Source: Gammaproteobacteria bacterium (GTDB lineage: Bacteria > Pseudomonadota > Gammaproteobacteria > UBA4575). Taken from it: 64,000 nucleotides of DNA. The position numbers were made by a program, and so were the translations under genes. The stretch lies in assembly GCA_965205275.1 (NCBI GenBank), contig OZ242168.1:1278355-1342354 (forward strand), written 5' to 3'. Of the stretch, positions 23,840 through 60,925 are shown piece by piece; position 1 is the first letter of the stretch; each line of letters begins with the position of its first letter. The notes beneath the pieces were generated by a model. That model saw nothing but the letters and a program-made list of their open reading frames with translations. It was not told the origin of the DNA and ran no database searches.

Positions 23840-25744
<1,905 letters not shown>

Positions 25745-43068: not shown

Positions 43069-44766
43069 ATGGCCATGAGCATAAGGAATGAAGCCCTTGC
43101 ACAACCGGGTTTTATCCAGAGGTCCTGGCAACAGAAAAGTAATCTGGGCTGGTTATTATGTACAGTATGCGCGGCATTATTGCTGAGCGTTCCCATAGTC
43201 ACGGTACTGTATTCGATCGTATTGCCCAGGAGTGAGGTCTGGTTACACCTTCGGTCTACCGTTCTCTCTGACTACCTATTCAATTCTTTTGTGCTGGCAT
43301 CAGGTGTCTGCCTCGGTACATCTCTTATCGGAATCACTACCGCCTGGTTGTGCAGTGTCTGCAACTTCCCGGGTCGAAAGATATTCAGTTGGGCATTGCT
43401 TTTGCCGCTCGCATTTCCACCCTACATCATTGCCTACACCTATACAGGCATGCTTGATTTCGCGGGTCCGGTACAGACTTTAATGCGCAATCTTTTCAAC
43501 TGGGGATACGGTGATTACTGGTTTCCGGAGATCCGCTCCATTACCGGGGCAATCGTTATGATTTCCCTAGTGTTATACCCCTATGTTTATTTACTCATGA
43601 GAACCGCTTTTTCCGAGCAATCTGTCAGTTTTCGTGAGGCAAGTCATGTATTTGGTGTGGGGTCATACAAAACTTTCTTTACGATTACCCTGCCTTTGGC
43701 ACGACCCGCCATCGCTGCAGGATTGACTCTGGTCGTCATGGAAACACTTGCTGACTATGGAACTGTTCACTACTTTGGCGTGACAACCTTCACCACGGGT
43801 ATTTTCCGCACCTGGTTCGGACTGGGCGATCGAATTGCCGCCACGCAACTGGCCAGTATCCTGCTGCTTTGTGTTTTCGCCGTGATCCTGGCAGAACGCT
43901 ACTCAAGGAAAACGGTGCGCTATCAAAATCCTACAAGAACACAAAAAAACTGGCACTACCCATTATCGGGAACCAAAGCCATCCTGGCGGCAGGCATCTG
44001 CTGCTTACCTATCTTGCTCGGGTTCATAGTCCCCACATTTCAATTGGGCGTATGGGCTGTGCAAACCGCACCCGAAATGATCAATTTGTCTTTCCTTGCA
44101 TTGACTTTCAATACTGTGCTGCTCGCTGTCATAGTGACCCTGATTATCCTGGCAACGGCCACTTTACTGGCTTATGGCAAACGTGTCGGTACACACTTTT
44201 TTATCCCGTACACCGTAAACATAAGTGCAACAGGCTATGCAGTGCCCGGGATTATTATTGCAGTAGGTGTACTGCTGCCATTCGCATGGCTGGATAACGC
44301 TCTTGACACCTGGGTACAACAAAAATTCGGGTTTTCCTCCGGCCTGATTCTGACCGGCACTTTAGCTTCCCTGGTCTTTGCCCATGTTGTACGTTTTATG
44401 GCAATCGGGCTTAACTCGGTTGATGCCAGTCTGGCAAAAATTCACCGCAGCATTGATGATGCCGCGCAGTTACTGGGACACAAGACCTTTGACCGCTTTG
44501 CCAATATCCATTTTCCGATGATCCGAAGCGGCATACTCACTGCTGCATTGCTCGTGTTCGTCGAAGTAACAAAAGAACTGCCGGCCACCCTGGTGTTACG
44601 CCCGTTTAACTTCAATACCCTTGCCGTACGTACTTATGAACTTGCTTCCGATGAACGTCTGGCGGATGCGGCATGCAGCGCATTATTGATTGTAGCCATC
44701 AGCATCTTGCCAATCTTGATATTGAATCGCTCAATTGCAAAAAGCGGAGCCACACATGGCGCCTAG
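43069..44766 (+). CDS. Fe(3+) ABC transporter permease (duplicated BPD domain)
   Basis: 565 aa with about 12 TM segments and two EAA-like loops (FREASHVFGVGSYKTFFTITLPLARP and IDDAAQLLGHKTFDRFANIHFPMIRS). Confidence 0.88.
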   Translation: MAMSIRNEALAQPGFIQRSWQQKSNLGWLLCTVCAALLLSVPIVTVLYSIVLPRSEVWLHLRSTVLSDYLFNSFVLASGVCLGTSLIGITTAWLCSVCNFPGRKIFSWALLLPLAFPPYIIAYTYTGMLDFAGPVQTLMRNLFNWGYGDYWFPEIRSITGAIVMISLVLYPYVYLLMRTAFSEQSVSFREASHVFGVGSYKTFFTITLPLARPAIAAGLTLVVMETLADYGTVHYFGVTTFTTGIFRTWFGLGDRIAATQLASILLLCVFAVILAERYSRKTVRYQNPTRTQKNWHYPLSGTKAILAAGICCLPILLGFIVPTFQLGVWAVQTAPEMINLSFLALTFNTVLLAVIVTLIILATATLLAYGKRVGTHFFIPYTVNISATGYAVPGIIIAVGVLLPFAWLDNALDTWVQQKFGFSSGLILTGTLASLVFAHVVRFMAIGLNSVDASLAKIHRSIDDAAQLLGHKTFDRFANIHFPMIRSGILTAALLVFVEVTKELPATLVLRPFNFNTLAVRTYELASDERLADAACSALLIVAISILPILILNRSIAKSGATHGA

Positions 44767-45829
44767 GCTTGATGTGCGCAACGTTAGCGTAAAATTGCAA
44801 AACAAAAGCATTGTACAAAATGCTTCCCTGCGACTGGAAACGGGCTGCATTGCCTCCATTTTAGGTCCAAGTGGCTGCGGCAAGACTACATTGCTACGCG
44901 CACTTGCAGGATTTCAGCCTATTTCCAGTGGCGAAATTCATGTGCACGAAAAACTGTTCAGCAAAATACAATTCACACTGGCTCCGGAAAAGCGACGCAT
45001 CAGCATGATGTTCCAGGACCTGGCGCTGTTCCCGCATCTTACCGTCAGGCAAAACATTTGTTTTGGTCTTAAATCGCTGAGCAACCGCGATAAGCGTACC
45101 CGCACTCGTCAGGTTCTCGAGCTGACAGAACTTGACCACCAGGGAGAAAAATACCCGCACCAGTTGTCATCCGGACAACAACAGCGTGTCGCGTTGGCAC
45201 GTGCCCTGGCACCAAAACCCGAAATCCTTTTGCTGGACGAGCCCTTCTCAAGTCTTGACCCTGACTTGCGTGAACAGGTTGCAACAGGAGTACGTAACAT
45301 CCTCAAACATGAAAAAGTAACCGCGATACTTGTTACTCATGATCAACACGAAGCCTTTGCCATGGCCGATGAGATTGGTGTCATGGTGGATGGCAGGGTG
45401 GAACAATGGGGCAGTGCCTACAATATATACCACAAGCCCAAAACACGCTTCGTCGCTGACTTTGTAGGCCTGGGAAGCATGGTACCGGCAAAAGTGCTTG
45501 ATGCCTGCACACTCGACACTGAATTTGGTCAGATCAGGGGTGATTTTGATCCGGCTTTTACATCCGGCCAGAAAGTTGATTTGCTGGTCCGGCCTGATGA
45601 CATTCCCCATGATGACAGCAGTCCCATCACTGCGCTGGTGGAAGAAAAACGCTTTCGTGGGGCCGAGTTCCTGTACAAGCTTCGCCTGCGAAGCGGTAAT
45701 TTCGTTCTTTGCTATGCCCCCAGTCATCATAATCACCAAATTGGAGAACCCATAGGTATAAAGCTGGATCTTGAGCATCTGGTAGTCTTTGCGCACAAGC
45801 AGTCGATACCGTTTGGCAACCGGCATTAA
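44756..45829 (+). CDS. Fe(3+) ABC transporter ATP-binding protein
   Basis: Walker A GPSGCGKTT, signature LSSGQQQRVALARAL, Walker B LLLDEPFS. ATG 44756 overlaps the permease stop by 11 nt. Confidence 0.9.
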   Translation: MAPRLDVRNVSVKLQNKSIVQNASLRLETGCIASILGPSGCGKTTLLRALAGFQPISSGEIHVHEKLFSKIQFTLAPEKRRISMMFQDLALFPHLTVRQNICFGLKSLSNRDKRTRTRQVLELTELDHQGEKYPHQLSSGQQQRVALARALAPKPEILLLDEPFSSLDPDLREQVATGVRNILKHEKVTAILVTHDQHEAFAMADEIGVMVDGRVEQWGSAYNIYHKPKTRFVADFVGLGSMVPAKVLDACTLDTEFGQIRGDFDPAFTSGQKVDLLVRPDDIPHDDSSPITALVEEKRFRGAEFLYKLRLRSGNFVLCYAPSHHNHQIGEPIGIKLDLEHLVVFAHKQSIPFGNRH

Positions 45830-46046
45830 AAAAGCTCACCTGAACAACCCTTCCTGCAGGCGGGCAGGCACAGTCCTGTAGATCAGCATGCAATCGACTC
45901 TATACGCAAAATTTTGCAATCCAGACACATAACAGATATAAAAAGCCGTCTGGAAACTACATGCCCAGAATAATAATCGAGTTGATATATGAAATTCCTT
46001 TCCTTTACACCATGCGCCTAATGATCATTCACAGCCGGTAACCGAC

Positions 46047-47729
46047 TTGGCCAGCCATAAGCAGACACAAAACTATTCCTCTTCCATCGTCGACGGGGTT
46101 GAACGTGCACCCAGTCGTGCCATGTTACGGGCTGTCGGTTTCAAGGATGACGATTTTACAAAGACCCAGATTGGTATCGCATCGACCTGGAGCATGGTCA
46201 CCCCATGCAACATGCATATTGACACACTTGCCAATGAGGCAGCCAAAGGTGCTAATCAGGCTGGTGGGAAAGCTGTTATATTCAATACCATCACAGTTTC
46301 TGACGGCATTTCCATGGGCACCGAGGGCATGAAGTATTCTCTGGTCTCACGAGAAGTCATTGCCGACTCCATTGAAACTGTAGTGGGCTGTGAAGGATTT
46401 GATGGTGTGGTAGCCATCGGCGGCTGTGACAAAAACATGCCCGGATGCCTGATCGCGATGGCACGCCTCAACCGCCCATCGATATTCGTCTATGGTGGCA
46501 CCATCATGCCAGGCCGGTATAAAAATACAAATGTGGATGTAGTATCGGTATTTGAAGCAGTGGGGCAACATGCCAGGCACCAATTGTCAGATCACGAACT
46601 TAAGCAGATTGAATTATCTGCCATACCGGGCCCGGGATCTTGTGGTGGCATGTATACGGCAAACACGATGGCTTGCGCCATTGAGGCACTGGGTATGAGT
46701 CTGCCGAACAGTTCAGCACAAAATGCAATCTCGCAAGACAAGCAGCAGGATTGTATTGCCGCAGGTGAAGCGGTCATGAACCTGGTGAGAAAAAATATTT
46801 GTCCCAAAAACATCATGACAAGAAAGGCATTCCTGAATGCAATCACTGTGGTGACTGCATTGGGTGGGTCAACCAATGCAGTGCTACACCTGCTTGCAAT
46901 GGCACATGCCGCAGGTGTGAAACTAACTCTGGATGACTTTACACGTGTCGGCAAAAAAGTGCCTGTGCTTGCTGATTTGCGGCCCAGTGGCCGATACATG
47001 ATGTCAGAGTTGATTGAAATCGGTGGTATCCAGCCCCTGATGCGCATGCTGTTAGACAAGGGCCTGCTGCAGGGAGACTGTCTTACGGTTACAGGCAAAA
47101 CACTGAAGCAAAATCTGCGTGGCGTAAAACCCTATCCGAAATCCCAGGATATTGTACGAAATTTGACTAACCCGATTAAAAAAGATGGTCACCTGGTGAT
47201 CCTGTATGGAAATCTTGCACCTGAAGGTGCAGTGGCGAAAATTTCTGGTAAAGAGGGCCTATGCTTCACAGGCAAGGCACGTGTCTTCCCTTCGGAAGAG
47301 AAGGCATTGTCAAAAATACTGGATGGTGGAGTCAGGAAAGGCGACGTCGTGGTCATACGTTATGAGGGTCCGAAAGGGGGCCCCGGTATGCGCGAGATGC
47401 TGTCCCCTACTGCCGCCATAATGGGTAAAGGGCTAGGCAAGAATGTCGCCCTGATTACTGATGGCCGCTTCTCGGGCGGCAGTCATGGCTTTGTGGTCGG
47501 CCACATCACCCCGGAAGCTGCAACGGGGGGGCCTCTGGCACTGTTGAAAAATGGCGATCAAATCACCATTGATGCTCAAAAGCGCGAAATCAACGTCAAG
47601 CTGTCCAAAAAAGAACTCGCGCAAAGAAAAAAGGGCTGGCGTCCTCCGAAACCCCGTTATACAAGGGGCGTATTGGCCAAATATGCGCAACAGGTGCGCT
47701 CGGCGTCAAATGGGGCTATCACTGACTAG
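46047..47729 (+). CDS. ilvD: Dihydroxy-acid dehydratase
   Basis: Motifs [21 protein letters not shown] and [11 protein letters not shown]. It appears to start at TTG 46047; no in-frame ATG lies upstream. Confidence 0.94.
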
Positions 47730-47828
47730 GAATCCTGAATTGTCAGACATGCAGTAAATCCTTTAGGATTGCCTTGTCGATTACACATCATGTACCAAGT
47801 ATTATGAAACTATTTTCCAGGAGTTGCG

Positions 47829-48467
47829 ATGGCCACATTACTATCCCCCGAAGAACTTGAAGCCGTAATGGAACGCAAAAATGCGATGCGTCGTGAAGCC
47901 TATGACCGTCGTAATGCACAAGAAAATAAAGATGAAATCAGTACAGGGGCCTGCCAGAAATTCATGGGCCTGCCAGAATACCAGCGTGCAAAAATAGCCA
48001 TGTGGTACATTGACTGTCGCTCCGAGACCCGCACTAAAACACAATTGCTGGAAGAAGTTGCCCGAGGCGAAAAGAAAATAATCGTGCCCTACTGTACTGA
48101 AGACGAGAATGGTGAAAACAAACTGGGCCTGTGGTGGATGGAAAGTCTGGAAGAAATGGTCGTAGGTAAGTGGAATATTCTGGAACCGCCCAAGGAAATG
48201 TGGGGAAACCCTGAAAAGGAGGTGGAGCCGGAAGACCTGGACATCATTATGGTACCGGGCGTGGGTTTTGACAGAAAAGGAGGCCGGATGGGAAATGGAC
48301 AGGGCTACTATGACCGCCTGCTCGAAAAAGCCCGCCCGGATTGCCCACTGGTCGCACTGTGTTATGAATCACAGCTGTTCGATGAGATCCTAGTAGCACC
48401 TCATGATGTTTACATGGACAAGGTTATCACTGAGGATGTGGTCTACGAAGGTATCGGGCGGGGTTAG
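47829..48467 (+). CDS. 5-formyltetrahydrofolate cyclo-ligase-family protein
   Basis: Family motifs DIIMVPGVGFDRKGGRMGNGQGYYDR and CYESQL...PHD, 212 aa. Its stop lies 2 nt before the next start. Confidence 0.8.
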   Translation: MATLLSPEELEAVMERKNAMRREAYDRRNAQENKDEISTGACQKFMGLPEYQRAKIAMWYIDCRSETRTKTQLLEEVARGEKKIIVPYCTEDENGENKLGLWWMESLEEMVVGKWNILEPPKEMWGNPEKEVEPEDLDIIMVPGVGFDRKGGRMGNGQGYYDRLLEKARPDCPLVALCYESQLFDEILVAPHDVYMDKVITEDVVYEGIGRG

Positions 48468-48469
48468 CC

Positions 48470-49387
48470 ATGGCAGCAAAAATCGATGATACCTACGCAG
48501 AAGCATTCAGAAGTCTGTACACTGAATTCCTGATTACTGCACGCGATCGAAGATGGCTGGATCATGCCGTTCATGCCGCTACCGGCAATGCCTCAAGCTC
48601 CATATTATGTGACTGCGAGGCGGGTATGGACCGTTATGTGGGGCCTGGTGGCGATGAGAGTTTTGCTACCCCGGATGGTCGTCCGGGTGCCATTGTGCAA
48701 CTGCATATCCCGCGTTTTCGTAAAGATCGGGTCAAGGCCCTGGAACGTTCGGCGCTGGTGCGAATCAGCCAGAATGTGCTCACTTGCCCGACGGCTGCAT
48801 GCTTTAATCTGGTCGATTCAGAAGACTACTACCATATGGGCCGCAAGGTGGCCTACTTTGGCAACGGTCACCAAAAACGTATTGAACGTTTTGGACGTAA
48901 AATGTGGTGGATACCGATCCTGGGAGGCGAGTTTGTCCTGGACCGTCGACTTGGGTACGCGGACGGCCTGATGGGAGGCAATTTATGGTTTTTTGGAGAC
49001 AGCACAGACTCAGCACTCGAGGCGGCTGAAAAAGGGGTGGAGGCCATTCGGCCCATACCTGGCGTTATCACTACTTTCCCAGGTGGAATAGCAAGCAGCG
49101 GCTCCAAGGCCGGCAGCGATTATGATTTCACCATTGCCAGCACGTATGAGAAATTCTGCCCGTTGTTACAGGATGACCCGGATATCGAGGCAGGCTTGCC
49201 GCAAGGCGTACATTCAGTAATGGAAATTATAATGAATGGTCAAGGCATGCCGCCAATTATTGATGCCACGCAGGCTGCAATCAAGGCCTCTGTAAACACA
49301 CCGGGATTGGTCATGATCTCCGCCGGCAACTACGGCGGACGCCTGGGCAAAAGCTTTATTTTCTTGCACCCCGAAAAACAGATCTGA
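48470..49387 (+). CDS. Formylmethanofuran:tetrahydromethanopterin N-formyltransferase (Ftr/FhcD) homologue, stand-alone
   Basis: The N-terminus IDDTYAEAF...LITA, ATGNASS..LCDCEAG and TPDGRPG match the Ftr family as I recall it. The 305-aa length is typical of Ftr/FhcD. No fhcA/B/C genes are adjacent. Confidence 0.75.
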   Translation: MAAKIDDTYAEAFRSLYTEFLITARDRRWLDHAVHAATGNASSSILCDCEAGMDRYVGPGGDESFATPDGRPGAIVQLHIPRFRKDRVKALERSALVRISQNVLTCPTAACFNLVDSEDYYHMGRKVAYFGNGHQKRIERFGRKMWWIPILGGEFVLDRRLGYADGLMGGNLWFFGDSTDSALEAAEKGVEAIRPIPGVITTFPGGIASSGSKAGSDYDFTIASTYEKFCPLLQDDPDIEAGLPQGVHSVMEIIMNGQGMPPIIDATQAAIKASVNTPGLVMISAGNYGGRLGKSFIFLHPEKQI

Positions 49388-49654
49388 TGATCGCACGGGA
49401 ATTCACTTATAGGCCCATGGGCAAAATAACCAGAGATTCCAGTTTTATCCTCATGTACCCCTATTGATTTCAGATCACCCAGAATATAGCCCGTCGTGAT
49501 TGCCCAAACTGCTTGAGTCAAGCATAGTGCTTGTGGCATGATGCGGGGTTTTTCGTACAGTGACTATCTGTCCGCATAAACAGCTGCTCTAACTGCAGGA
49601 ACAACAATCGAGGCGCGTTCGTTTTACTAAACACCAAAACAAGGATTCTTAATC

Positions 49655-50923
49655 ATGCCTAGCGAAAAATTATCATTTCCTGGAAGAAATTACTTATTTG
49701 CACCAGGCCCGACTCATATACCCCAGGCTGTGCAAAATGCCATGATCGTCCCACAAGAGGATCACCGGGCGCCTGACTTTCCAGAACTCGTCAAACCCCT
49801 GCTCCGTGACTGCAAAAAAATATTCAAAACTACCCGAGGTACATGCTTTCTGTTTCCTGCTACAGGGACCGCGGGCTGGGAAGTGGCGCTGGCCAATACC
49901 TTGTCACCCGGAGACAAAATCCTGACCACACGCTTCGGTCAGTTCAGTCACCTGTGGTATGACCTTGCATGCCGAATTGGCCTGGAGGTCGAACTGGTTG
50001 AAACCCCTTGGGGAGAAGGTGTCCCGATAAGTAAATTCAGACGCATCCTGGCTGCGGACAAGGAGCACCGGATCAAGGCGATAGTGGTTTGTCATAACGA
50101 AACTGCAACGGGCGTGGCCAGCGATATAGGCGGATTGCGCCAAGCGATAAACGCCGTTAAACACCCAGCTCTGCTTATGGTAGATGGGGTAAGCTCGATT
50201 GCAAGTATTGATTTTCGCATGGATCAATGGGGGGTAGATGTGGCCGTAAGTGGATCGCAAAAAGGATTCATGCTGCCAGCAGGCATGGCCATCGTCGCTT
50301 TCAGTCCGAAGGCGTTGAAGGCACGCAAAAAAGCCCGATGCGCACGCTGTTTCCTGGATATTCAGGATCATATCAATACCAACAAAGACGGCTTTTTTCC
50401 CTATACCCCCTCGGTACCTATGCTGCGTGGCCTGCGTGCTTCAATAGACCTGCTCATGGATGAAGGTCTGGAGAACGTATTCAAGCGCCACCATCGACTG
50501 GCCGAGGGCGTACGTAAAGCGGTCAGGGCCTGGGGGCTAAAGCCTTGTGCAAAATCACCCAAGTGGTATTCCGATACTGTAACTGCAATAGAGGTGCCCC
50601 CGAATATCAATGCAGCAGAAGTGATCCATATTGCCTATCATCGCTACAATGTATCGTTGGGCGCAGGCCTGTCCAAAGTTGCCGGTAAGGTATTCCGGAT
50701 CGGACATCTAGGGGACAATAACGAAGCGCGAATGATGGCGGTTCTGGGCACTGCAGAAATGGCAATGCGGGATGCGGGCATGCGTGTGAAACCTGGCAGC
50801 GGAGTTGCAGCAGCAGGTGAGTACTATCGAAAAACTGCAAAAACGATCAAAAAGTTCGGCCCAACCAGCACTCCTCGCAAGGCAAGAACTGCAGTTAAAA
50901 AGAAAAAACCCATAAAGAAATAA
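49655..50923 (+). CDS. sga: Serine-glyoxylate aminotransferase (class V aminotransferase)
   Basis: PLP-lysine motif SGSQKGFMLPAG, N-terminus LFAPGPTHIPQAV, and serine-cycle gene context. It carries an unusual roughly 30-aa polybasic C-terminal tail. Confidence 0.85.
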   Translation: MPSEKLSFPGRNYLFAPGPTHIPQAVQNAMIVPQEDHRAPDFPELVKPLLRDCKKIFKTTRGTCFLFPATGTAGWEVALANTLSPGDKILTTRFGQFSHLWYDLACRIGLEVELVETPWGEGVPISKFRRILAADKEHRIKAIVVCHNETATGVASDIGGLRQAINAVKHPALLMVDGVSSIASIDFRMDQWGVDVAVSGSQKGFMLPAGMAIVAFSPKALKARKKARCARCFLDIQDHINTNKDGFFPYTPSVPMLRGLRASIDLLMDEGLENVFKRHHRLAEGVRKAVRAWGLKPCAKSPKWYSDTVTAIEVPPNINAAEVIHIAYHRYNVSLGAGLSKVAGKVFRIGHLGDNNEARMMAVLGTAEMAMRDAGMRVKPGSGVAAAGEYYRKTAKTIKKFGPTSTPRKARTAVKKKKPIKK

Positions 50924-50941
50924 ACCATAAGGACCTGAAAA

Positions 50942-51883
50942 ATGAGCTTTACTCAATACAAACCTGCACAGCAACGTTTACAACGCTGTGAACTGGCTGT
51001 ACCCGGATCCAATCCCAGAATGCTAGAAAAAGCAGTTACCTGTGCGGCAGATTATGTGTTTCTTGATCTGGAAGATGCCGTGGCACCCGATGACAAGGTG
51101 CAGGCGCGCAAAAATGTAATTGCTGCGCTAAACGAACACGACTGGAAAGGCCATGGAAAAACCGTTTCTGTACGCATTAACGGGTTGGATACCCACTACA
51201 TGTATCGTGACGTAGTGGATGTGGTAGAACAGGCGGGCAGTAAACTTGATACCCTCCTCATTCCAAAAGTGGGCACCACCGGTGATGTGTACATGGTGGA
51301 TGCCATGGTGACCCAGATTGAAGAAGCCAAAGGGTTCGAAAACAGAATTGGTCTTGAAGCCCTGATTGAGACGGCTTTGGGGATGACAAATGTGGAAGCC
51401 ATTGCTACCTCCAGTGCCCGTATGGAAGCCATGCACTTTGGAGTAGCCGATTATGCTGCGAGTAATCGTGCCCGCACCGTCAACATTGGTGGCTTGAATC
51501 CGGATTATCCAGGCGATCAGTGGCATGCTGCTATTTCGCGCATGACCGCTGCATGCCGAGCCTATGGATTGCGCCCGATCGATGGCCCGTTCGGTGACTT
51601 TGACGATCCCGATGGATACCGGTTGGCAGCGCGCCGTGCTGCAGCTTTGGGATGCGAGGGCAAATGGGCAATTCATCCCAAGCAGATTGAGCTGGCAAAC
51701 GAGGTTTTTACACCACCCGAAGCTGAAACCACCAAGGCCAAAAGAATTCTTGAAGAACTGGAAAAGGCCGCCAAGGAGGGTAAAGGGGCTGCCTCACTGG
51801 ATGGTAAAATGATCGATGCTGCTTCAGCACGCATGGCTGAAAATATTGTACGTGCTGCCGAGGCAATTGCCGCCAAGTCTTGA
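50942..51883 (+). CDS. mclA: Malyl-CoA lyase
   Basis: Long near-identical stretches to Methylobacterium extorquens MclA as I recall it: ELAVPGSNP, FLDLEDAVAPDDK, RINGLDTHYMYRDVVD, GLRPIDGPFGDFDDPDGY, GKWAIHPKQIELANEVFTP. Confidence 0.92.
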   Translation: MSFTQYKPAQQRLQRCELAVPGSNPRMLEKAVTCAADYVFLDLEDAVAPDDKVQARKNVIAALNEHDWKGHGKTVSVRINGLDTHYMYRDVVDVVEQAGSKLDTLLIPKVGTTGDVYMVDAMVTQIEEAKGFENRIGLEALIETALGMTNVEAIATSSARMEAMHFGVADYAASNRARTVNIGGLNPDYPGDQWHAAISRMTAACRAYGLRPIDGPFGDFDDPDGYRLAARRAAALGCEGKWAIHPKQIELANEVFTPPEAETTKAKRILEELEKAAKEGKGAASLDGKMIDAASARMAENIVRAAEAIAAKS

Positions 51884-52066
51884 AAACTCGTGTAGTATTT
51901 GGCTGCTACCTGCTCCAGACCCTGGCTGTTTTGCTTAAATTTCAGGCAACTATCCAACAATGGGATTTGTTGAAGAATCGCTGAATAGGCTATAAACAGT
52001 ATCGGATCAGATACAGTTGCCTTCGACTGACACGACAGGGAAACGAATCATTATTCTCGGGAGGGA

Positions 52067-53251
52067 ATGCAAGTGGATATTCATGAATATCAAGCTAAAG
52101 AATTGTTATCAGAATTTGGTGTAGGTATTTCGCCAGGCGGGCTCGCATACAGCCCTGAGCAGGCCATCTACCGTGCCAAGGAAATTGGTGGCCACCAATG
52201 GGTGGTCAAGGCGCAGATCCATTCTGGTGCGCGTGGCAAGGCCGGCGGAATTAAAGTTTGCTCAAATGATGAAGAAATATGGAATGCAGCTGAAGAATTA
52301 CTCGGTAAACGTCTGGTCACCCACCAGACCGGGCCGGGCGGGAAAGTAGTGTATCGCCTCTATATCGAACAGGTTTCAGATATTGAACGCGAAATTTATC
52401 TCGCTTTGGTGCTGGATCGAAACAAACAGCGAGTAGTCATTATCACGTCCTCCGAAGGGGGCATGGATATAGAAGAAGTGGCTGCCACAAAACCGGAGTC
52501 CATACACAGGCTGGAAGTTGAACCTGCAGTGGGTTTGCGAGACTTCCAGGCACGTGAGCTTGCTTTTGCACTCAATATCCACCCCGAATTGGTCAGCCAG
52601 GCAGTCCATTGTATCGAAGGGGCCTACCGCGCCTTTCGCGACCTTGACGCCACCTTGGTAGAAATCAACCCTCTGGTGATTACCAAGGACAATCATGTCG
52701 TGGCCCTGGATTCCAAAATGAGCTTTGATGACAATGCTCTGTTTCGACGACCAAAGATCTCTGAACTGCGCGACAAATCCCAGGAAGACTCACGTGAGAC
52801 CGCTGCTTCAGACCGGGGCCTGAGTTATGTGGGCCTGGATGGAGATATAGGCTGCATGATCAACGGTGCGGGGCTGGCAATGGCTACCATGGATATGATC
52901 AAACACAAAGGTGGTGAACCTGCTAACTTTCTGGATATTGGGGGTGGGGCTTCTCCAGACCGTGTCACTAAAGCATTCAAACTGGTACTGGATGATGAAA
53001 ATGTCAAGGCAATGCTGGTCAATATTTTTGCAGGCATCAACCGTTGCGACTGGATTGCTGAAGGCGTAATACAGGCGTTTGGCAAACTGGAGGTAAAAAC
53101 CCCCATCATAGTACGTCTCTCTGGAACAAATGTAGAAAAAGGCATGCAAATGCTCAAAGACAGTGGCTACCCGGTGATTACTGCAGATACGTTATCTGAA
53201 GCTGCAGAAAAAGTTGTAGCCGAGCGCAACCGCGCCGTCCAAGCCACATAA
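52067..53251 (+). CDS. mtkA: Malate-CoA ligase (malate thiokinase) beta subunit
   Basis: ATP-grasp SucC-like protein with (M)[11 protein letters not shown], placed directly between mclA and an SucD-like subunit. The start is more likely GTG 52073, since the SD GGGAGGG ends at about 52065. Confidence 0.88.
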
Positions 53252-53270
53252 AGATTTAGGAGAGACACAC

Positions 53271-54161
53271 ATGAGTATAATGATTGATAACAAGACCAAG
53301 GTACTGGTTCAGGGGTTTACAGGCAAAATTGGTACCTTTCACGCCAAGGAAATGCTCGAATACGGCACCCAAGTGGTAGGTGGCGTTACACCAGGTAAAG
53401 GGGGGCAAACCCATCTTGGGCTACCTGTGTTTAATACGATGAAGGATGCCGTATCGGAAACGGGTGCAGAGGCCAGTGTGGTATTCGTACCTGCTTCATT
53501 CGCTGCTGATTCAATTATGGAGGCTGCGGATGCGGGCATCAAAACCTGTGTTGCGATCACTGACGGTATTCCTGCGCAGGACATGATGCTTGTAAAACGT
53601 TACATGTACCGCTACAAAAAAGAAGATCGAATGCGCCTTACCGGCCCAAACTGTGCCGGCACTATCAGCCCAGGTAAGTGTCTGCTTGGTATCATGCCAG
53701 GACACATTTACATACCCGGTAATATAGGCATTGTTGCCCGTTCGGGCACACTCGGCTATGAAGCAGCATCTCAAATGAAAGCACGTGGAATCGGAATCAC
53801 GACCAGCGTTGGTATAGGTGGTGATCCTATCAATGGTAGTTCACACCGTGACATTCTTGAACTGTTTGAAGCCGACCCTGAAACCAAGGCTATCATGCTG
53901 ATCGGTGAAATCGGTGGACCCCAAGAGGCAGACGCTGCGGAATATTTTAAGCATCACATGAACAAGCCATTAGTGGCCTACATTGCCGGGCTTACTGCAC
54001 CTAAAGGTCGTCGTATGGGTCATGCCGGCGCTATTGTATCCGGTAAAGGTGAAAGTGCAGCTGAAAAAGTAGAACTGTTGCAAGAAGCAGGAGTCACGGT
54101 TGCGCCAGACCCATCAGAGCTTGGCTCAACCATGGAAAAAGTCTTGAAAGAGGTTGCCTAG
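53271..54161 (+). CDS. mtkB: Malate-CoA ligase alpha subunit
   Basis: SucD-like: VLVQGFTGKIGTFH, SRSGTLGYEA and the phosphohistidine loop MGHAGAIVSG. Confidence 0.88.
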   Translation: MSIMIDNKTKVLVQGFTGKIGTFHAKEMLEYGTQVVGGVTPGKGGQTHLGLPVFNTMKDAVSETGAEASVVFVPASFAADSIMEAADAGIKTCVAITDGIPAQDMMLVKRYMYRYKKEDRMRLTGPNCAGTISPGKCLLGIMPGHIYIPGNIGIVARSGTLGYEAASQMKARGIGITTSVGIGGDPINGSSHRDILELFEADPETKAIMLIGEIGGPQEADAAEYFKHHMNKPLVAYIAGLTAPKGRRMGHAGAIVSGKGESAAEKVELLQEAGVTVAPDPSELGSTMEKVLKEVA

Positions 54162-54173
54162 GAGAAAGGTAAA

Positions 54174-55145
54174 ATGAGTAAATTAAAAGTCATCGTCACA
54201 CGCGCCTGGCCGGCAGAAGTGGAAGCAACATTAAAAGAAAGATATGACGTACAGTTGAATGAGATCGACGTTGCAATGACTAAAGACGAAATGAAGAAGG
54301 CATTGGGCGATTGCGATGCTTTCCTGCCTACTGTCACAGATCCTGTCGATGCAGAAGTACTGAGTGCAGAACCGCTACGCGCAAAGTTTATCGGCAATTT
54401 TGGCGTGGGATTCAACCACATTGACCTGGATGCAGCCAAGGCACGCGGGCTTACCGTCACCAATACACCTGAAGTGCTTACCGACTGTACTGCCGATATT
54501 GCCATGACACTGTTGTTGACCGCAGCACGGCGCACAAGTGAAGGTGAGCGCCACTTACGTGCAAAAGCCTGGACAGGTTGGCGGCCTACTCACATGCTGG
54601 CTACCAAGGTAGCCGGCAAAACACTGGGTATGATCGGTATGGGACGTATCGCACAGGCTATGGCCAAGCGGGCACACCATGGCTTTGGAATGAAGATTAT
54701 CTTTGTAGACCCCTACCCGCCTTCCGATGAAGTGGTCAAGAAATTTAATGCATCCCAGTGTGAATCGATCAATGAAGTCCTTGCAAACTCGGATTTTGTG
54801 TCGATTCACTGCCCGGGTGGCAAGGATACGTATCATTTGCTGGGCAAGGAAAACCTTGCCAGAATGAAACCTGGCGCATTTTTAATCAATTCAGCACGCG
54901 GTGATGTAGTGGATAATGATGCATTAATTGAAGCATTGAAAAATGGCACGATTGCAGGTGCAGGCTTGGATGTTTTCGAAGGCGAGCCCAATCTGGATGA
55001 ACGTTTTCTTGAATTGGAAAATGTTGTGCTGCTGCCTCATTTGGGCAGCGCTTCGACTGAGACACGTATTGCAATGGGCAACCGTGTGCTGAAAAATCTG
55101 GCTGCATTTGAAGCAGGCGAGACACCGAAAGACAAGCTGGTTTAA
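54174..55145 (+). CDS. hprA: Hydroxypyruvate reductase (D-isomer-specific 2-hydroxyacid dehydrogenase)
   Basis: NAD motif GMIGMGRIAQAMA, catalytic-region motifs NSARGDVVD and PHLGSAS, and serine-cycle context. Confidence 0.85.
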   Translation: MSKLKVIVTRAWPAEVEATLKERYDVQLNEIDVAMTKDEMKKALGDCDAFLPTVTDPVDAEVLSAEPLRAKFIGNFGVGFNHIDLDAAKARGLTVTNTPEVLTDCTADIAMTLLLTAARRTSEGERHLRAKAWTGWRPTHMLATKVAGKTLGMIGMGRIAQAMAKRAHHGFGMKIIFVDPYPPSDEVVKKFNASQCESINEVLANSDFVSIHCPGGKDTYHLLGKENLARMKPGAFLINSARGDVVDNDALIEALKNGTIAGAGLDVFEGEPNLDERFLELENVVLLPHLGSASTETRIAMGNRVLKNLAAFEAGETPKDKLV

Positions 55146-55253
55146 ATTCATATACACCCTTCACCCTTCCAGATACAGCACGTGCCTTCCATGTTGGAGG
55201 CCCTTGGGCATGTGGTTGTATTGTGCGCACTTGTTTAATTTTATACTCACAGT

Positions 55254-58028
55254 ATGAGTGATGTCTCCCCGCTTTCCTGGACCCAACTGACCAAGGTGGC
55301 CACAGGCTGCACCATCATTGACCCGGCTGCAAGTTATGAAGACAAGCTGGTAGACCTGCTATACAAGCAGCTACTGAGTGTGTTACGTACCCGGCAACCT
55401 GATATAGCAGCCTTCATTGAAGGCCAGAAAGATATTCGTGACAGTACGGACTCACAGATTTTATATATCTTGGAAACCTATGGTATCTGGTTTCAGTTAC
55501 TCAGTATCGCTGAACAAAATGCAACGGTGCAACAGCGTCGGCAGATTGAAAAAGAATACGGCCGTGACCGCGTTCCAGGAACTTTTGCCTATACATTTTC
55601 AACGGCAGCCCAGCACGATGTTCCTGTAGAGGAAATCCAGAAAGTTCTGAATAACAGTTTTATCTGCCCGGTGATCACCGCACACCCTACTGAAGCCAAG
55701 CGCGTGACGGTGCTGGAAATTCACCGACGTATTTATATATTGCTGAAACAGTTGGAACTGACACGCTGGACACCTCGGGAACGTGACGACCTGATTCATG
55801 AATTACGCAACGAAATTGATCTGTTATGGCTAACCGGTGAGATTCGTCTGGAAAAACCCACTGTTGCCCAGGAAGTCACCTGGGGATTACATTTTTTCAC
55901 AGAATCCGTGTTCGATGGCGTAATGAAATTTTACGTCGAACTAGATCGTGCATTAAGACAGGTGTACCCACACTTTGAATTTGAGGTGTCGCCGTTATTC
56001 CGTTTCGGTTCATGGATAGGTGGAGACCGAGACGGAAATCCAAATGTAAATACCGAAGTCACGGCATTCGCCATTCATGAAAATGCTAGGACCTGTTTAA
56101 AACGATATCGCCAGGATTTATCCGCGCTTGGATCAAAACTGAGCATTGCCAGTCATTCCGTAAAGATTCCTGAGCATTTTATTGAGGCCCTTAAACAAAA
56201 ACTGGAAATGCTGGGAGAAACGGAATCCTTTTCAAAACGAAACCCGGGCGAGGTTTTTCGACAGTACGTAAGTTGTATGCTGCGCAATATTGATGCGACC
56301 CTGGATAATATCGACGACCCAAGTAAATCAAGTATTGCCTATCATCGTGCAGCCGATCTGGCAGCCGACCTGCAAACACTTGAACAAGGCCTGAACGATG
56401 CGAGATGCGAGCACCTGAGTACATCGAATGTATGTCCCCTGCGCCATATGGTCAATACCTTCGGATTTCGTACAACCAGCCTGGACCTTCGTGAAAATAC
56501 AGCCGTTACCAACGGCGTCCTTGCAGAAATCTGGCAGGCCCTGCATCAAAAAACACATTTTGATGTTCCGGATTTCAAATCTGATGAATGGAAGGAATGG
56601 ATTGTAAGTGAACTCATGCAGCCCTTACGCGTGATACCACACATTGATTTTCTCTCCAAGCAGGCACAAGCCACATTGGCCATGTTTGAACAGGTCAAAC
56701 ATTATCAACGCAAACTGGACCCCGAAGCATTTGGTGTTTTCATACTCAGCATGACACAAACCTCAACGGATGTACTGGGAGTTTATCTTTTGGCAAAGTA
56801 TGTCGGTTTGTTTACGGATGTTGATGGTCTGGAGGCCTGTCGAATTCTGGTAGTGCCCTTACTGGAAACCATTGAGGACCTGAAAAAAGGGCCCGCTATA
56901 TTGAATGAATTACTGGAACATGGATTTATCAGGCGCACGATTCGCAAACATGGAGACTCACAAGAGGTCATGGTGGGATACTCCGATTCAAATAAAGACG
57001 GTGGATTTCTTACCTCAAACTGGATTATCAGCAAAGCACAGACACTCATACGGGAGGCAGGAAACAAGCATAAAATACCTGCTTCATTTTTTCACGGTCG
57101 TGGAGGCTCTGTAAGTCGAGGTGGCGCACCTAGCGGACGTGCCATTGCCGCACAACCTGCTGGTACGATTGATGGACGCATGCGAGTCACCGAACAGGGC
57201 GAAGTCGTATCGTACAAATACGCAAACCGTGGATTTGCAGAGGAGCAAATGGAAATTCTTGCCTCCAGTGCACTTACACACACACTCATGTCAGGCAGAG
57301 ACCCTGCCTATCAAACCAATGCCGAACTGGATGAAGTCATGGAAGCGCTTTCGGGCACCTCATATGTCACGTATCGCAAATTCATTGAAACTCCCGGTCT
57401 AGTAGAGTTCTATCAGCAGGCAAGTCCCGTTGAGGAATTGACACTCATGAAAATCGGATCAAGGCCTTCACGCAGATTTGGTGCCGCAACCCTGGAGGAC
57501 CTGCGCGCAATTCCTTGGGTATTCGCCTGGACACAAAACCGTATTCTGGTTCCGGGTTGGTATGGGGTTGGCAGCAGTTTTGAACAGCTTATCAGCATAC
57601 GTGGGGAACTCGGAAAAGAATTGTTGCAGGAATTATATAACAAGCACTCATTATTCAGACTCATACTGGATAGTGTCGAAAAAACATTATTGCTGGTCGA
57701 CATGGAGGTGGCTGAAAAATACTCCGAACTGGTCACAAATACCCACTATAGCAGAGTGATTTTTTCAGACATAAAATCTGAATACGAACGAACCATGAAA
57801 ATGGTTTTACAGATTACAGGGGAAGACCAGCTATGCGATCGCTTTCCGAATTTTAAACGGCACTTTTACCGGCGTCTTGAATCCCTGACTCAGGTAGGTA
57901 TCGAACAGGCTGAGTTAGTCAAGAAGTTTCGCAATGATGCATCTGGAACTCAGGACAGACAAGATGTACTGGTTCCCCTGCTTTTGTCTATTAACTGTGT
58001 GGCAGCAGGCATTGGCAGCACAGGCTAA
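55254..58028 (+). CDS. ppc: Phosphoenolpyruvate carboxylase
   Basis: Signatures VITAHPTEAKR, GYSDSNKDGG and FHGRGGSVSRGG, with a C-terminal ...GIGSTG. 924 aa. Confidence 0.95.
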   Translation: MSDVSPLSWTQLTKVATGCTIIDPAASYEDKLVDLLYKQLLSVLRTRQPDIAAFIEGQKDIRDSTDSQILYILETYGIWFQLLSIAEQNATVQQRRQIEKEYGRDRVPGTFAYTFSTAAQHDVPVEEIQKVLNNSFICPVITAHPTEAKRVTVLEIHRRIYILLKQLELTRWTPRERDDLIHELRNEIDLLWLTGEIRLEKPTVAQEVTWGLHFFTESVFDGVMKFYVELDRALRQVYPHFEFEVSPLFRFGSWIGGDRDGNPNVNTEVTAFAIHENARTCLKRYRQDLSALGSKLSIASHSVKIPEHFIEALKQKLEMLGETESFSKRNPGEVFRQYVSCMLRNIDATLDNIDDPSKSSIAYHRAADLAADLQTLEQGLNDARCEHLSTSNVCPLRHMVNTFGFRTTSLDLRENTAVTNGVLAEIWQALHQKTHFDVPDFKSDEWKEWIVSELMQPLRVIPHIDFLSKQAQATLAMFEQVKHYQRKLDPEAFGVFILSMTQTSTDVLGVYLLAKYVGLFTDVDGLEACRILVVPLLETIEDLKKGPAILNELLEHGFIRRTIRKHGDSQEVMVGYSDSNKDGGFLTSNWIISKAQTLIREAGNKHKIPASFFHGRGGSVSRGGAPSGRAIAAQPAGTIDGRMRVTEQGEVVSYKYANRGFAEEQMEILASSALTHTLMSGRDPAYQTNAELDEVMEALSGTSYVTYRKFIETPGLVEFYQQASPVEELTLMKIGSRPSRRFGAATLEDLRAIPWVFAWTQNRILVPGWYGVGSSFEQLISIRGELGKELLQELYNKHSLFRLILDSVEKTLLLVDMEVAEKYSELVTNTHYSRVIFSDIKSEYERTMKMVLQITGEDQLCDRFPNFKRHFYRRLESLTQVGIEQAELVKKFRNDASGTQDRQDVLVPLLLSINCVAAGIGSTG

Positions 58029-58066
58029 CCCGCCATTCATAATGGTACAATTTTTTGTTCAGAACC

Positions 58067-58933
58067 ATGAAAAAGCTCTTATATCATTTTGATACCGATC
58101 TCATCCCAAGTGTATTTGATTCTGTAGTCGCATATGATGGGGGTGCGGACCACGTGACACAGCTTGGAGATGTTAATGAAAATAATTGTGCAAACCTTGT
58201 TGAGGGCGCCATATATACGCGTGCACCCAAACATAAAAAAAATACTGCAATCTTTGTAAGCGGCAGCAATCTTATTGCAGGGCAATCTTTATTCGAGGCC
58301 GTACAAAGCCGGTTTTTTCAAAATTTTCGCGTATCAGTGATGCTTGACAGCAACGGCTGTAACACGACCGCCGCCGCCGGTGTCGCCCTGTTAAATCGGG
58401 CCACATCATTACAAGACAAAATTGCGGTGGTTCTGGCCGGTACCGGACCAGTCGGTCAGCGTGCTGCGGTGATGCTGGCAAAAAGCGGTGCCCGGGTCCG
58501 CCTTACTTCGCGCAAACAAAAACGCTCTGCACAGGCATGCGACGAGATAGCAAAACAATTCGGGGTCACACTTACATCTGTAGAAGCCAGTGATGCCGAT
58601 TCTACCAGCGATGCCCTGGAAGGCGCACACATTGTGTTTGGTGCAGGCAAGGCAGGTATCCGGTTACTTGACGCAAGTCAATGGCAACAGCATGATACCA
58701 TCGAAATTTTAGCCGACGTCAGTACTGCCGAGCCGCTTGGTTTTGCAGGCATCAGCATGATGGACAGAAACACCGAGAAATTTGGCAAGAAAATATTTGG
58801 CGGCCTAGGCATTGGTGCATTAAAACTTAAACTCCATCGCACGTGCATTGAAAAACTGTTCACATCCAATGATCAGGTACTGGATGCCGATGCAATCTAT
58901 GAAATTGCCCAACAAATGACGCGTTCCACATAG
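58067..58933 (+). CDS. mtdA: NADP-dependent methylene-tetrahydrofolate / methylene-tetrahydromethanopterin dehydrogenase
   Basis: Strong resemblance to M. extorquens MtdA as I recall it: KKLL..FDTD..PSVFD.VV.YDGGADH, MLDSNGCNTTAAAGVAL, VLAGTGPVG, LGIGALKLKLHR. ATG at 58067; the listed ORF starts at TTG 58055. Confidence 0.9.
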   Translation: MKKLLYHFDTDLIPSVFDSVVAYDGGADHVTQLGDVNENNCANLVEGAIYTRAPKHKKNTAIFVSGSNLIAGQSLFEAVQSRFFQNFRVSVMLDSNGCNTTAAAGVALLNRATSLQDKIAVVLAGTGPVGQRAAVMLAKSGARVRLTSRKQKRSAQACDEIAKQFGVTLTSVEASDADSTSDALEGAHIVFGAGKAGIRLLDASQWQQHDTIEILADVSTAEPLGFAGISMMDRNTEKFGKKIFGGLGIGALKLKLHRTCIEKLFTSNDQVLDADAIYEIAQQMTRST

Positions 58934-58934
58934 C

Positions 58935-60083
58935 ATGAAACCTTCCCCTACACTGCTTGAAATGATCGGGCAATTGGTTGCAATCCCTTCTGTCAGCAGC
59001 ACCCAGGCACAATTTGACACCAGCAATAAACCTATTATCAATTGCCTGGCAAACTGGCTGGATGATCTGGGTTTTCAAATAGAAATTATTCCATCCTCCA
59101 GTGATAAGGCCAATCTGGTGGCATGGATTGGAGAGGGAGAAGATGGCCTTGTGTTATCTGGCCACACCGATACTGTAAATTATGATCAAACAGGCTGGAA
59201 TACCGACCCGTTCCAGATACAGCAGGCTGACGACCGCCTTTACGGCCTGGGCACAGCAGATATGAAGTCGTTTCTGGCAATTGCAATTGAGGCGGCGAAA
59301 GATTTCGTAGGGAAAGATCTCAAGCAACGTCTGACCATTATCGCCACAGCTGACGAGGAAAGCACGATGCAGGGCGTTCGTACACTGGTGGAAAAAAACA
59401 AAAAACCGGGACGGTTTTGCATCATTGGCGAGCCCACAGACCTGACTCCTGTACATCAGCATAAAGGAGTCTTTATGGAATCGATTACCCTTTATGGAAA
59501 GGCAGGCCATGCAAGTAACCCAGCACTCGGAAACAATGCATTGGATGGGATGCGTGCCGTACTGAATGAGTTAGACCGATTCAAACAGGAGCTTGCTGAA
59601 AAATACGTCAATCACAACTTTATCGTGCCGATTCCAACTCTGAATCTTGGCCACATCCACGGTGGCGATAATCCAAACCGAATCTGTGCAGAATGTGAAC
59701 TGCATATTGATATACGCCTATTGCCGGGTATGCAGATTGGTACTCTGCGGGATGAGTTGCATGAACGTGTCACTAAAATAACAGATGAACTGGGCCTTAC
59801 CTGCAAATTCGAAGCGCTGTTCGATGGCGTTCCTGCCTTTGAAACACCAGATGACTCAAGGATTATTCAGCTGACAACCCAGCATACCCGTAAAAATCCA
59901 AAATCCGTGACCTTTGCAACAGAAGCTCCGTTTTTCAATTCCATGGAAATGGAAGCAGTAGTGTTGGGCCCCGGCTCAATAGACCAGGCCCATCAGCCAA
60001 ATGAATTCATTGCACTTCCAATGCTGGACCCCACGACTGAATTACTACAAAAAATGATACATTCAATATGCATGCAGTCATGA
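58935..60083 (+). CDS. argE: Acetylornithine deacetylase
   Basis: M20 peptidase motifs LSGHTDTV and ATADEES, plus ...GPGSIDQAHQPNEF. 382 aa. Confidence 0.88.
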   Translation: MKPSPTLLEMIGQLVAIPSVSSTQAQFDTSNKPIINCLANWLDDLGFQIEIIPSSSDKANLVAWIGEGEDGLVLSGHTDTVNYDQTGWNTDPFQIQQADDRLYGLGTADMKSFLAIAIEAAKDFVGKDLKQRLTIIATADEESTMQGVRTLVEKNKKPGRFCIIGEPTDLTPVHQHKGVFMESITLYGKAGHASNPALGNNALDGMRAVLNELDRFKQELAEKYVNHNFIVPIPTLNLGHIHGGDNPNRICAECELHIDIRLLPGMQIGTLRDELHERVTKITDELGLTCKFEALFDGVPAFETPDDSRIIQLTTQHTRKNPKSVTFATEAPFFNSMEMEAVVLGPGSIDQAHQPNEFIALPMLDPTTELLQKMIHSICMQS

Positions 60084-60125
60084 CGGGCCTGCTCAGGCTC
60101 AGCCCCTTTTCTGAATAATTTTCCT

Positions 60126-60644: not shown

Positions 60645-60877
60645 GGCTAATAAATTTTATCAACATGGCAATTGCATAATCTACCACCCTGTCCATGTTA
60701 TTCATACAAAACAGTCAGGGCTACCAGGGGTATTGATCACCAATGCAGGAAGTGGAATAACAGAAAACCAAAAACCTCAGGTAACAAAAAAGCCATGGCT
60801 TTTTTGTCACTGCTGACAGTGAGTCCTGTCTGGCGCCCGCATGACATCAACCACCTTCTATCTAGGAGGTCCTGTAA

Positions 60878-60915
60878 CAATCAAAAAAACGGCACGTAAT
60901 GCTGTTTTTTGATTG
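60878..60915 (-). terminator. Rho-independent terminator after the 149-aa gene (palindromic, works on either strand)
   Basis: CAATCAAAAAAACGGCA-CGTAA-TGCTGTTTTTTGATTG. The stem is flanked by A and T runs and begins 11 nt downstream of the stop at 60926. Confidence 0.6.
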
Positions 60916-60925
60916 CCAGCCCGGC

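Follow-up and report, generated by a model that had tools for sequence, protein, structure and literature searches.

A conserved cyclo-ligase–formyltransferase gene pair beside serine-cycle genes in uncultured Gammaproteobacteria and its possible role in formyl transfer to the folate pool

The cyclo-ligase–formyltransferase pair and its conservation

In a 64,000-nucleotide stretch from a Gammaproteobacteria bacterium (UBA4575 lineage; assembly GCA_965205275.1, contig OZ242168.1, positions 1,278,355 to 1,342,354 of the forward strand; hereafter "the window"), a gene of the 5-formyltetrahydrofolate cyclo-ligase (MTHFS) family, here called MTHFSl, directly precedes a gene for an Ftr-family formyltransferase. 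As had been noted from the bare DNA (the sequence-only reading), the two open reading frames (ORFs) are 2 nt apart: MTHFSl ends with TAG (48465-48467), CC follows, and the ATG of Ftr begins at 48470. The two family assignments made in that reading were borne out by profile matches. The MTHFSl product aligned over residues 17-202 of 212 with all of PF01812 (profile 1-186 of 186; E 8e-37) and scored 126.1 bits against TIGR02727 (cut-off 84.9). Its motif GNGQGYYDR aligned with GFGKGYYDR of 1sou and GFGGGYYDR of 1ydm, i.e., the GxGxGYYDR-type motif of MTHFS is kept, while its matches to MTHFS structures in PDB were weak (E 6e-9 to 7e-19). The two-lobe architecture of Ftr was complete (PF01913 at residues 4-150, PF02741 at residues 153-300), and its scores were 311.1 against NF002554 (cut-off 297) and a borderline 293.2 against the fhcD model TIGR03119 (cut-off 292.6).

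A pattern scan with Ftr found 398 relatives among species-representative genomes, and 80 genome loci were fetched (Ftr 77-92% identical); 80 further loci came from a metagenome scan that took a distant member as its seed. Pairing was counted in loci with at least 750 bp of upstream sequence, as an MTHFS-like gene at most 500 bp upstream on the same strand. MTHFSl was directly 5' of the paired-type Ftr in 146 of 151 such loci, with a median gap of ~6 nt (2 nt in the window); for the 80 genome loci, the cyclo-ligase gene was immediately 5' of Ftr wherever upstream sequence existed. Many of the metagenome loci were high-GC contigs (0.57-0.70) from soil, sediment and freshwater, in which the genes were again adjacent (Ftr 70-77% and MTHFSl 46-67% identical to the window's proteins), so that the pair loci overall ranged over GC contents of 0.31-0.70 and came from the sea, sponges, soil and freshwater. 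A more divergent Ftr (~45% identical; locus L086) likewise has a cyclo-ligase partner. The identity of MTHFSl (46-93% across loci) tracked that of Ftr, and the best 120 database relatives of MTHFSl were all at least 79% identical. Five loci have no MTHFSl; there, the ORFs 5' of Ftr matched neither Pfam nor a hidden Markov model built from MTHFSl. The adjacency of MTHFSl and Ftr is far beyond chance: the two genes are a real, strongly conserved and co-inherited unit.

The closest relatives were uncultured marine and sponge-associated Gammaproteobacteria, many with complete chromosomes of 1.6-2.9 Mb; Candidatus Porisulfidus and Candidatus Oxydemutatoraceae are among the names in their record titles. 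Within the window's subclade, dN/dS was 0.02-0.07 for MTHFSl and 0.03-0.05 for Ftr, the same as for ilvD and the serine-cycle genes; therefore the pair genes are not relics. Both ORFs were intact in all loci examined. Two candidate MTHFS-Ftr fusions (P0342, 410 aa; P0251, 316 aa) were rejected, as each carries only partial domains of the two families and is a fragment from the same clade; frameshift merging of the adjacent, 2-nt-spaced genes in low-quality assemblies is their most likely origin. Separately, three loci with a typical gamma-clade pair (L022, L062 and L078) were deposited as 'uncultured Mycobacterium sp.', 'uncultured Planctomycetaceae bacterium' and 'Thiothrix sp.', names that are probably binning or naming errors in public metagenome-assembled genomes (MAGs).

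Searching 1.84 billion cluster representatives yielded 979 Ftr-family clusters. The paired-type Ftr was one tight cluster (representative 68% identical), and the next full-length sequences were no more than ~48% identical. Among solved structures, archaeal Ftr were the best matches (221-230 bits, 43.5-45% identity); FhcD of Methylobacterium extorquens followed with 164 bits and 37% identity, and identity to FhcD of gammaproteobacterial fhcCDAB operons (L171/L172, L173) was 38-39.5%. In a neighbor-joining tree from one alignment, the MTHFS-paired Ftr formed a group (94/100 bootstrap) apart from both bacterial FhcD and archaeal Ftr. Therefore the 305-aa protein is not a displaced canonical fhcD, which had been one half of the conservative alternative in the sequence-only reading.

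As to the active site, E252 of Ftr aligned with the catalytic Glu245 of Methanopyrus kandleri (for the role of this residue, Glu252 in FhcD, see PMC6926001), and 30 positions conserved across 47 other Ftr/FhcD sequences were kept. At positions conserved elsewhere in the family, the clade has only four substitutions of its own: R22E (M. kandleri numbering), an Arg to Glu change and the most striking of them, M148L, E155D and A186G. By its sequence, the paired Ftr is almost certainly an active formyltransferase. The contexts examined outside the clade were canonical: archaeal mtd-ftr-fwdDBAC, an ftr-mer-like pair, and FhcA-Ftr and Ftr-FhcC fusions, the latter two being the genuine fusions of the Ftr family and both belonging to the canonical clade. 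Of the canonical ftr and fhcD loci examined, none had a cyclo-ligase gene as neighbor.

Folate, serine-cycle and methanopterin genes around the pair

Downstream of the pair, the gene order sga-mcl-mtkA-mtkB-hprA-ppc-mtdA was confirmed as first described, with sga beginning 267 bp after the Ftr stop (Table 1). With sga, hprA, mtdA, mtkA/B, ppc and mcl together, a serine-cycle cluster of the M. extorquens type is present; the mtdA product scored 313 bits against the M. extorquens MtdA structures 1lu9, 6tge and 6tlk. Scanning 44000-64000 gave no Rfam match (E <= 0.1), and 47500-52200 showed no + strand terminator; therefore no riboswitch or terminator lies between the pair and sga. The promoter match upstream of MTHFSl is weak (9/12), and such matches were no more numerous than the shuffled expectation.

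Table 1. Features at the pair and in the adjoining serine-cycle cluster (window coordinates)
Feature	Coordinates	Strand	Basis
ilvD–cyclo-ligase gap (99 bp): sigma-70-like promoter match TTGTCA-18-TAGGAT	47740..47769	+	consensus scan
MTHFSl, 212 aa, 5-formyltetrahydrofolate cyclo-ligase family	47829..48467	+	PF01812, TIGR02727
Ftr-family formyltransferase, MTHFS-paired clade, 305 aa	48470..49387	+	PF01913 + PF02741
Spacer, 267 bp, spot of folD in most relatives	49388..49654	.	comparison with relatives
sga, serine-glyoxylate-type class V aminotransferase	49655..50923	+	PF00266; NF045640 598 bits, below cut-off 650
mcl, malyl-CoA lyase-type HpcH/HpaI enzyme	50942..51883	+	PF03328
mtkA, malate-CoA ligase beta	52067-53251	+	NF010647 688 bits, cut-off 604
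mtkB, malate-CoA ligase alpha	53271-54161	+	NF004230 match
hprA, hydroxypyruvate/glyoxylate reductase-type D-2-hydroxyacid dehydrogenase	54174..55145	+	PF02826 + PF00389
ppc, phosphoenolpyruvate carboxylase, 924 aa	55254..58028	+	PF00311 in L081 orthologue; synteny
mtdA, NADP-dependent methylene-tetrahydromethanopterin/methylene-tetrahydrofolate dehydrogenase type	58055..58933	+	PF09176

Among relatives, adjacency to serine-cycle genes held in ~3/4 of the gamma loci, in varied arrangements (sga-hprA-MTHFSl-Ftr in a 4.68-Mb genome; mtkBA and hprA upstream of the pair on the opposite strand in L121), but the pair was also found without serine-cycle genes nearby. Another recurrent neighbor was folD (PF00763 + PF02882), which came directly 3' of Ftr in 52 of the 80 genome loci and also in many loci from metagenomes, with a gap of -7 to ~160 nt (~1 kb in one locus). 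FolD is bifunctional and folate-specific, and supplies cyclohydrolase activity. No FolD remnant was detected by tblastn anywhere in the window. MTHFSl-Ftr-FolD is the core of the gamma clade; the window's subclade has lost folD from the spot 3' of Ftr, and mtdA ends its serine-cycle cluster. The lack of fch emphasized in the sequence-only reading is true of the window, but since most relatives carry folD at this spot it is a local feature and not a property of the module. In one close relative (L081, 14792-16668; Ftr 96% identical), mtkB was called in two pieces (ORFs of 199 and 88 aa) and so was hprA, here with an overlap (185 and 151 aa), which points either to indel errors of long reads or to the onset of decay among the serine-cycle genes of that genome.

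The window was searched with Pfam on every ORF of at least 150 aa and with tblastn using the proteins of relatives for tetrahydromethanopterin (H4MPT) and methanofuran; neither search detected fch, folD, fae, mch, mtdB, fhcA/B/C, mptG or mfnB in the 64 kb, whose remaining genes were housekeeping. The absence of H4MPT genes near the pair, as first described, thus stands for the window, but it does not extend to relatives. In the 2.6-Mb chromosome CP070821.1 (L048/L174; Ftr 81% and MTHFSl 87% identical to the window's), a full H4MPT/methanofuran island lies 4-10 kb from the pair: MTHFSl-Ftr-FolD, hprA and an unannotated 408-aa gene adjoin mptG-mtdB-ATP-grasp-mch-RimK-CitG-fae-...-mfnB. Two complete gammaproteobacterial islands (L171/L172 and L173) served for comparison, in which fhcC-fhcD-fhcA-fhcB is divergent from mptG-mtdB-...-mch-...-mfnB, a different FTR gene sits between fhcC and fhcA, and fae precedes fhcC in L171/L172. 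MTHFSl-Ftr-FolD of CP070821.1 occupies the flank that fhcC-fhcD-fhcA-fhcB holds in these islands (after fae in L171/L172). The CP070821.1 island (L174, 1-21008) also lacks a ~410-aa PTPS-domain gene that in L171-L173 is located between fae and a His_biosynth gene; besides this loss, the fhcCDAB block was not seen at its mptG flank.

Other lineages placed the pair among such genes as well. In L132, L111, L112 and L123 it ends an H4MPT island, the L132-type order being fhcA, fhcC, mch, CitG-like, PTPS-like, ATP-grasp, hydantoinase-A-like, amino-acid-kinase-like, MTHFSl, Ftr. In L146 and L105 the order is fae-MTHFSl-ftr-mfnB, where fae was found by tblastn with a Fae sequence and then confirmed by Pfam, and the mfnB product matched the Pfam 4-HFC-P synthase family (methanofuran biosynthesis). 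In L137 a canonical Ftr (~40% identical) is accompanied by FhcA, FhcB and an FwdD-like gene, with the pair 5 kb away; thus this locus holds both Ftr types, as paralogues. The pair has its roots in the biology of methanopterin and methanofuran. Two further features of these regions were recorded. Between the canonical fhc cluster and MTHFSl-Ftr of L137 (4702-8361, - strand) lies a gene whose 1219-aa product has Pyr_redox_2 and NAD_binding_1 domains. A pterin-4a-carbinolamine dehydratase gene (PF01329) recurs near the pair or fhc genes in several unrelated lineages (L137 8704-9087, - strand; L111 11048-11362; L112 7269-7583; L132 12256-12570; L173 1-205), which hints at a pterin-recycling function tied to the islands.

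As a proxy for the H4MPT pathway in the window's own genome, we queried for relatives of the Mch of CP070821.1. The best 120 matches, all at least 61% identical, included Mch of unrelated gamma- and betaproteobacteria as well as of three chromosomes (5.89, 3.42 and 2.98 Mb). The window's contig (2,106,183 bp) was not represented among these 120, nor were ~25 other chromosomes that carry the pair. Among members of the 20 closest Mch clusters, only the CP070821.1 lineage overlapped with the pair carriers. This suggests, without proving it, that a close Mch is lacking in the reduced marine and sponge subclade; a search limited to the best 120 matches would overlook a divergent Mch. Replacement of Mch by MTHFSl was considered and rejected, since Mch is present in islands that hold the pair.

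Four other observations concern the rest of the window: i) A thiamine pyrophosphate (TPP) riboswitch (RF00059; 25793-25892, - strand; 63 bits against a gathering threshold of 54.3) lies 5' of thiC (23840-25732, - strand), an ordinary arrangement; ii) At 25923-28383 (+ strand), a GFO/IDH/MocA-type oxidoreductase gene overlaps by 20 nt a gene for a 463-aa radical SAM protein and adjoins lipopolysaccharide core genes; iii) Five ORFs of 149-267 aa had no Pfam match (within 60126-62138, - strand; 20392-20934, + strand; 35425-36117, - strand); iv) The 267-aa ORF among these (61335-62138) has weak relatives (31-38% identity) just 3' of hprA in the distant gamma loci L061, L064, L068, L078 and L079.

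A possible two-step formyl route and its alternatives

Ftr makes or uses an N5-formyl tetrahydropterin, and MTHFS-family enzymes convert N5-formyl tetrahydropterins to the methenyl form with ATP, irreversibly. The product type of Ftr is therefore the substrate type of the MTHFS family. For a near-invariant and translationally coupled pair of genes, the simplest reading is that the two enzymes catalyze consecutive reactions. We thus tentatively favor, at somewhat less than even confidence, the view that Ftr and the cyclo-ligase may form one module acting in sequence as a formyl-level entry into the folate pool. In the first step, a tetrahydropterin would be formylated at N5 by the Ftr-clade enzyme, with formyl-methanofuran or formyl-methylofuran as the most likely donor. 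The cyclo-ligase, whose gene is translationally coupled to that of Ftr, would then close the N5-formyl pterin to the 5,10-methenyl form at the cost of one ATP; being ATP-driven and irreversible, this step would set the direction of flux. Finally, methenyl-tetrahydrofolate (methenyl-H4F) would be converted by FolD, or by MtdA in the window, to methylene-H4F and on to serine. As the outcome, one-carbon (C1) units bound to methanofuran/H4MPT could reach H4F without free formate, FtfL or Fch.

We infer the sequence of the two reactions, the pterin, the formyl donor and the flux direction from the following links. FolD/MtdA and serine-cycle genes are the recurrent partners in the gamma clade, which makes H4F the most likely pterin. 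A methanofuran-type donor, as already proposed from the window alone, is plausible because in other lineages the pair lies beside fae, mfnB, mch, fhcA/C or a canonical fhc cluster. The exchange of a formyl group between H4MPT and methylofuran lies close to equilibrium (+4.4 kJ/mol; PMC6926001), and with the pull of ATP hydrolysis the thermodynamics would be reasonable. Moreover, the syntenic replacement of fhcCDAB in CP070821.1 and the coexistence of two Ftr types in L137 fit a role other than that of Fhc. Of the shunt outlined in the sequence-only reading, the conserved unit, the non-canonical Ftr and the recurrent link to folate and the serine cycle have thus gained ground, but its premise of an absent fch is specific to the window's subclade, and that of an absent H4MPT context is not general.

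A number of observations weigh against such a folate-directed module: i) The sequences as such are compatible with either H4F or H4MPT as the pterin; ii) The active site of Ftr is nearly unchanged, so that an ordinary formyl-methanofuran:H4MPT transferase would fit equally well; iii) The L132-type islands hold the pair among H4MPT genes, with neither folD nor serine-cycle genes, and no second ftr is visible in them up to the ends of the contigs; iv) Five of the 151 loci have no cyclo-ligase gene; v) If the window's genome is truly devoid of H4MPT and methanofuran, as the Mch search hints, the proposed formyl donor would be missing there; vi) The C1 metabolism reported for a related sponge symbiont consists of FolD and Fhs, and neither gene of the pair is mentioned in that paper (in our 171 loci, tblastn with an Fhs sequence as probe gave 0 matches); vii) Methanogens without detected tetrahydrofolate carry MTHFS homologues, for which action on 5-formyl-H4MPT has been proposed (PMC3087415).

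The alternative that survives best, which retains the salvage half of the conservative alternative in the sequence-only reading and which we consider fairly unlikely, combines an ordinary H4MPT-pathway Ftr (formyl-H4MPT/methanofuran) with a cyclo-ligase that recycles 5-formyl-H4F, the two being co-expressed as members of a C1 regulon. Here 5-formyl-H4F would be a stable inhibitor that arises from serine hydroxymethyltransferase (SHMT) at high serine-cycle flux or from mis-formylation of H4F by Ftr; in the latter case the repair would be mechanistically the same pair of reactions at low flux. The formation of 5-formyl-H4F by SHMT is established, and counts for this account. So do the intact catalytic and invariant residues of Ftr, the position of the pair in or beside H4MPT/methanofuran islands in several lineages, the score of MTHFSl above the curated MTHFS equivalog cut-off, and the serine-cycle and folD neighbors, which would gain from salvage. 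However, a repair function leaves unexplained why the cyclo-ligase is tied to the Ftr clade in nearly all loci and not to glyA or folD, why the pairing persists where serine-cycle genes are not near, and why canonical ftr/fhcD in the loci examined have no cyclo-ligase beside them. Nor does it account for the unusually high conservation of MTHFSl, the presence of both canonical and paired Ftr in L137, or the retention of the pair in chromosomes for which no close Mch was found.

Alternatively, the cyclo-ligase might act on N5-formyl-H4MPT as an ATP-driven, one-way counterpart of the reversible Mch, in a reductive or regulatory branch of the H4MPT pathway, which we regard as unlikely. MtdA-type dehydrogenases, as is known and as the names of solved MtdA chains indicate, accept methenyl-H4MPT. 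The position of the pair inside four H4MPT islands (L132, L111, L112, L123) and between fae and mfnB in two further loci (L146, L105) speaks for it, and so does the role on 5-formyl-H4MPT proposed for the methanogen homologues (PMC3087415). On the other hand, the islands that hold the pair already have Mch, the third partner in the gamma clade is the folate-specific FolD, and the serine-cycle genes need methylene-H4F; furthermore, no close Mch was found for the window's genome or its sister chromosomes, which perhaps have no H4MPT pathway at all. That the two genes have no functional link, Ftr being a decaying remnant of a lost H4MPT pathway beside a housekeeping cyclo-ligase, is highly improbable: no other H4MPT gene occurs in the window and Ftr scores only at the fhcD cut-off, but the remnant idea is contradicted by the selection and synteny data, i.e., the low dN/dS of both genes, the intact ORFs with the catalytic Glu kept, and the pairing maintained across distant lineages.

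Within the folate-directed reading, a more specific version for the 1.6-2.2 Mb sponge/marine subclade, quite unlikely in our judgment, is that H4MPT was lost while selection kept MTHFSl-Ftr beside FolD/MtdA and the serine cycle, and that Ftr became a folate-dependent N5-formyltransferase whose carrier would be of the methanofuran type, with Ftr by itself shuttling formyl groups into H4F, or something new. If true, this would be the first Ftr-family enzyme outside H4MPT chemistry, and Ftr plus cyclo-ligase would constitute an FtfL/Fch-independent, ATP-driven entry of formyl groups into the serine cycle.

Significance and comparison with known systems

We found no description of the cyclo-ligase–Ftr pairing in the literature searched, and none that joins cyclo-ligase, formylmethanofuran and serine. 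Papers on related symbionts describe C1 metabolism via MetF, FolD, Fhs and the serine pathway and do not mention the pairing; likewise, neither gene of the pair is mentioned in the sponge-symbiont and UBA868 papers. One sponge paper calls a 1.6-Mb 'Chromatiales' MAG H4MPT-complete. While the two protein families are familiar, the novelty lies in a separate Ftr clade that has an obligatory cyclo-ligase partner and is recurrently linked to FolD and the serine cycle.

To our knowledge, serine-cycle methylotrophs are thought to link the H4MPT/methanofuran and tetrahydrofolate pools only via free formate and FtfL. The module is a testable candidate for a direct formyl bridge between these two C1 carrier pools, or else for an ATP-driven formyl-H4MPT cyclo-ligase, which would give the methanogen MTHFS homologues (PMC3087415) a function. 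Moreover, the pair is widespread, occurring in the species-representative relatives and in many soil and freshwater contigs, and its carriers include dominant sponge symbionts; it thus bears on how these handle C1 units from dimethylsulfoniopropionate, methylamines and methanol. Automated annotation, which now reads the carriers as having a piece of the methanopterin pathway, would be affected.

Compared with FhcD of the M. extorquens FhcABCD complex (PDB 6S6Y), the paired Ftr belongs to the same two-lobe fold family, shares the catalytic Glu (Glu252 in FhcD, E252 here) and is likewise linked to methanofuran/H4MPT genes in some relatives. Unlike FhcD, it forms a separate clade of limited identity to the M. 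extorquens and gammaproteobacterial proteins, and in the loci seen it never sits between fhcC and fhcA, following the cyclo-ligase gene instead. Archaeal Ftr (M. kandleri 1FTR/2FHJ, Archaeoglobus fulgidus 1M5H, Methanosarcina barkeri 1M5S) is encoded by a stand-alone gene, as is the paired Ftr. However, archaeal ftr keeps company with mtd, fwd or mer genes, whereas the paired Ftr has an obligatory MTHFS-family partner and differs in small insertions (residues ~59-63 and ~79-84) besides the Arg to Glu change at M. kandleri position 22.

With MTHFS/YgfA (EC 6.3.3.2), MTHFSl shares the full PF01812 domain, the nucleotide/folate motif region and a TIGR02727 score above cut-off; unlike them, it constitutes a tight subfamily, inherited together with an Ftr-clade gene and coupled to it in translation. 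The methanogen MTHFS homologues MTH204/MTBMA_c06530, likened here by their description (PMC3087415), also place the MTHFS family in an H4MPT/methanofuran setting. The bacterial module, unlike these, is tied to FolD and serine-cycle genes as well.

In M. extorquens, formate is converted to methylene-H4F by the FtfL-Fch-MtdA route. The proposed module would reach the same outcome, at one ATP for the passage from formyl through methenyl- to methylene-H4F and with mtdA in the same cluster. It would differ in proceeding through an N5-formyl and not an N10-formyl intermediate, in employing unrelated enzymes, and in not needing free formate. As for transfer to N5 of folate, the formiminotransferase domain of FTCD and glutamate formyltransferase, which belong to a different Pfam family, take a formyl or formimino group from an amine and place it on N5 of H4F, chemistry that makes the proposed N5 transfer on folate feasible.

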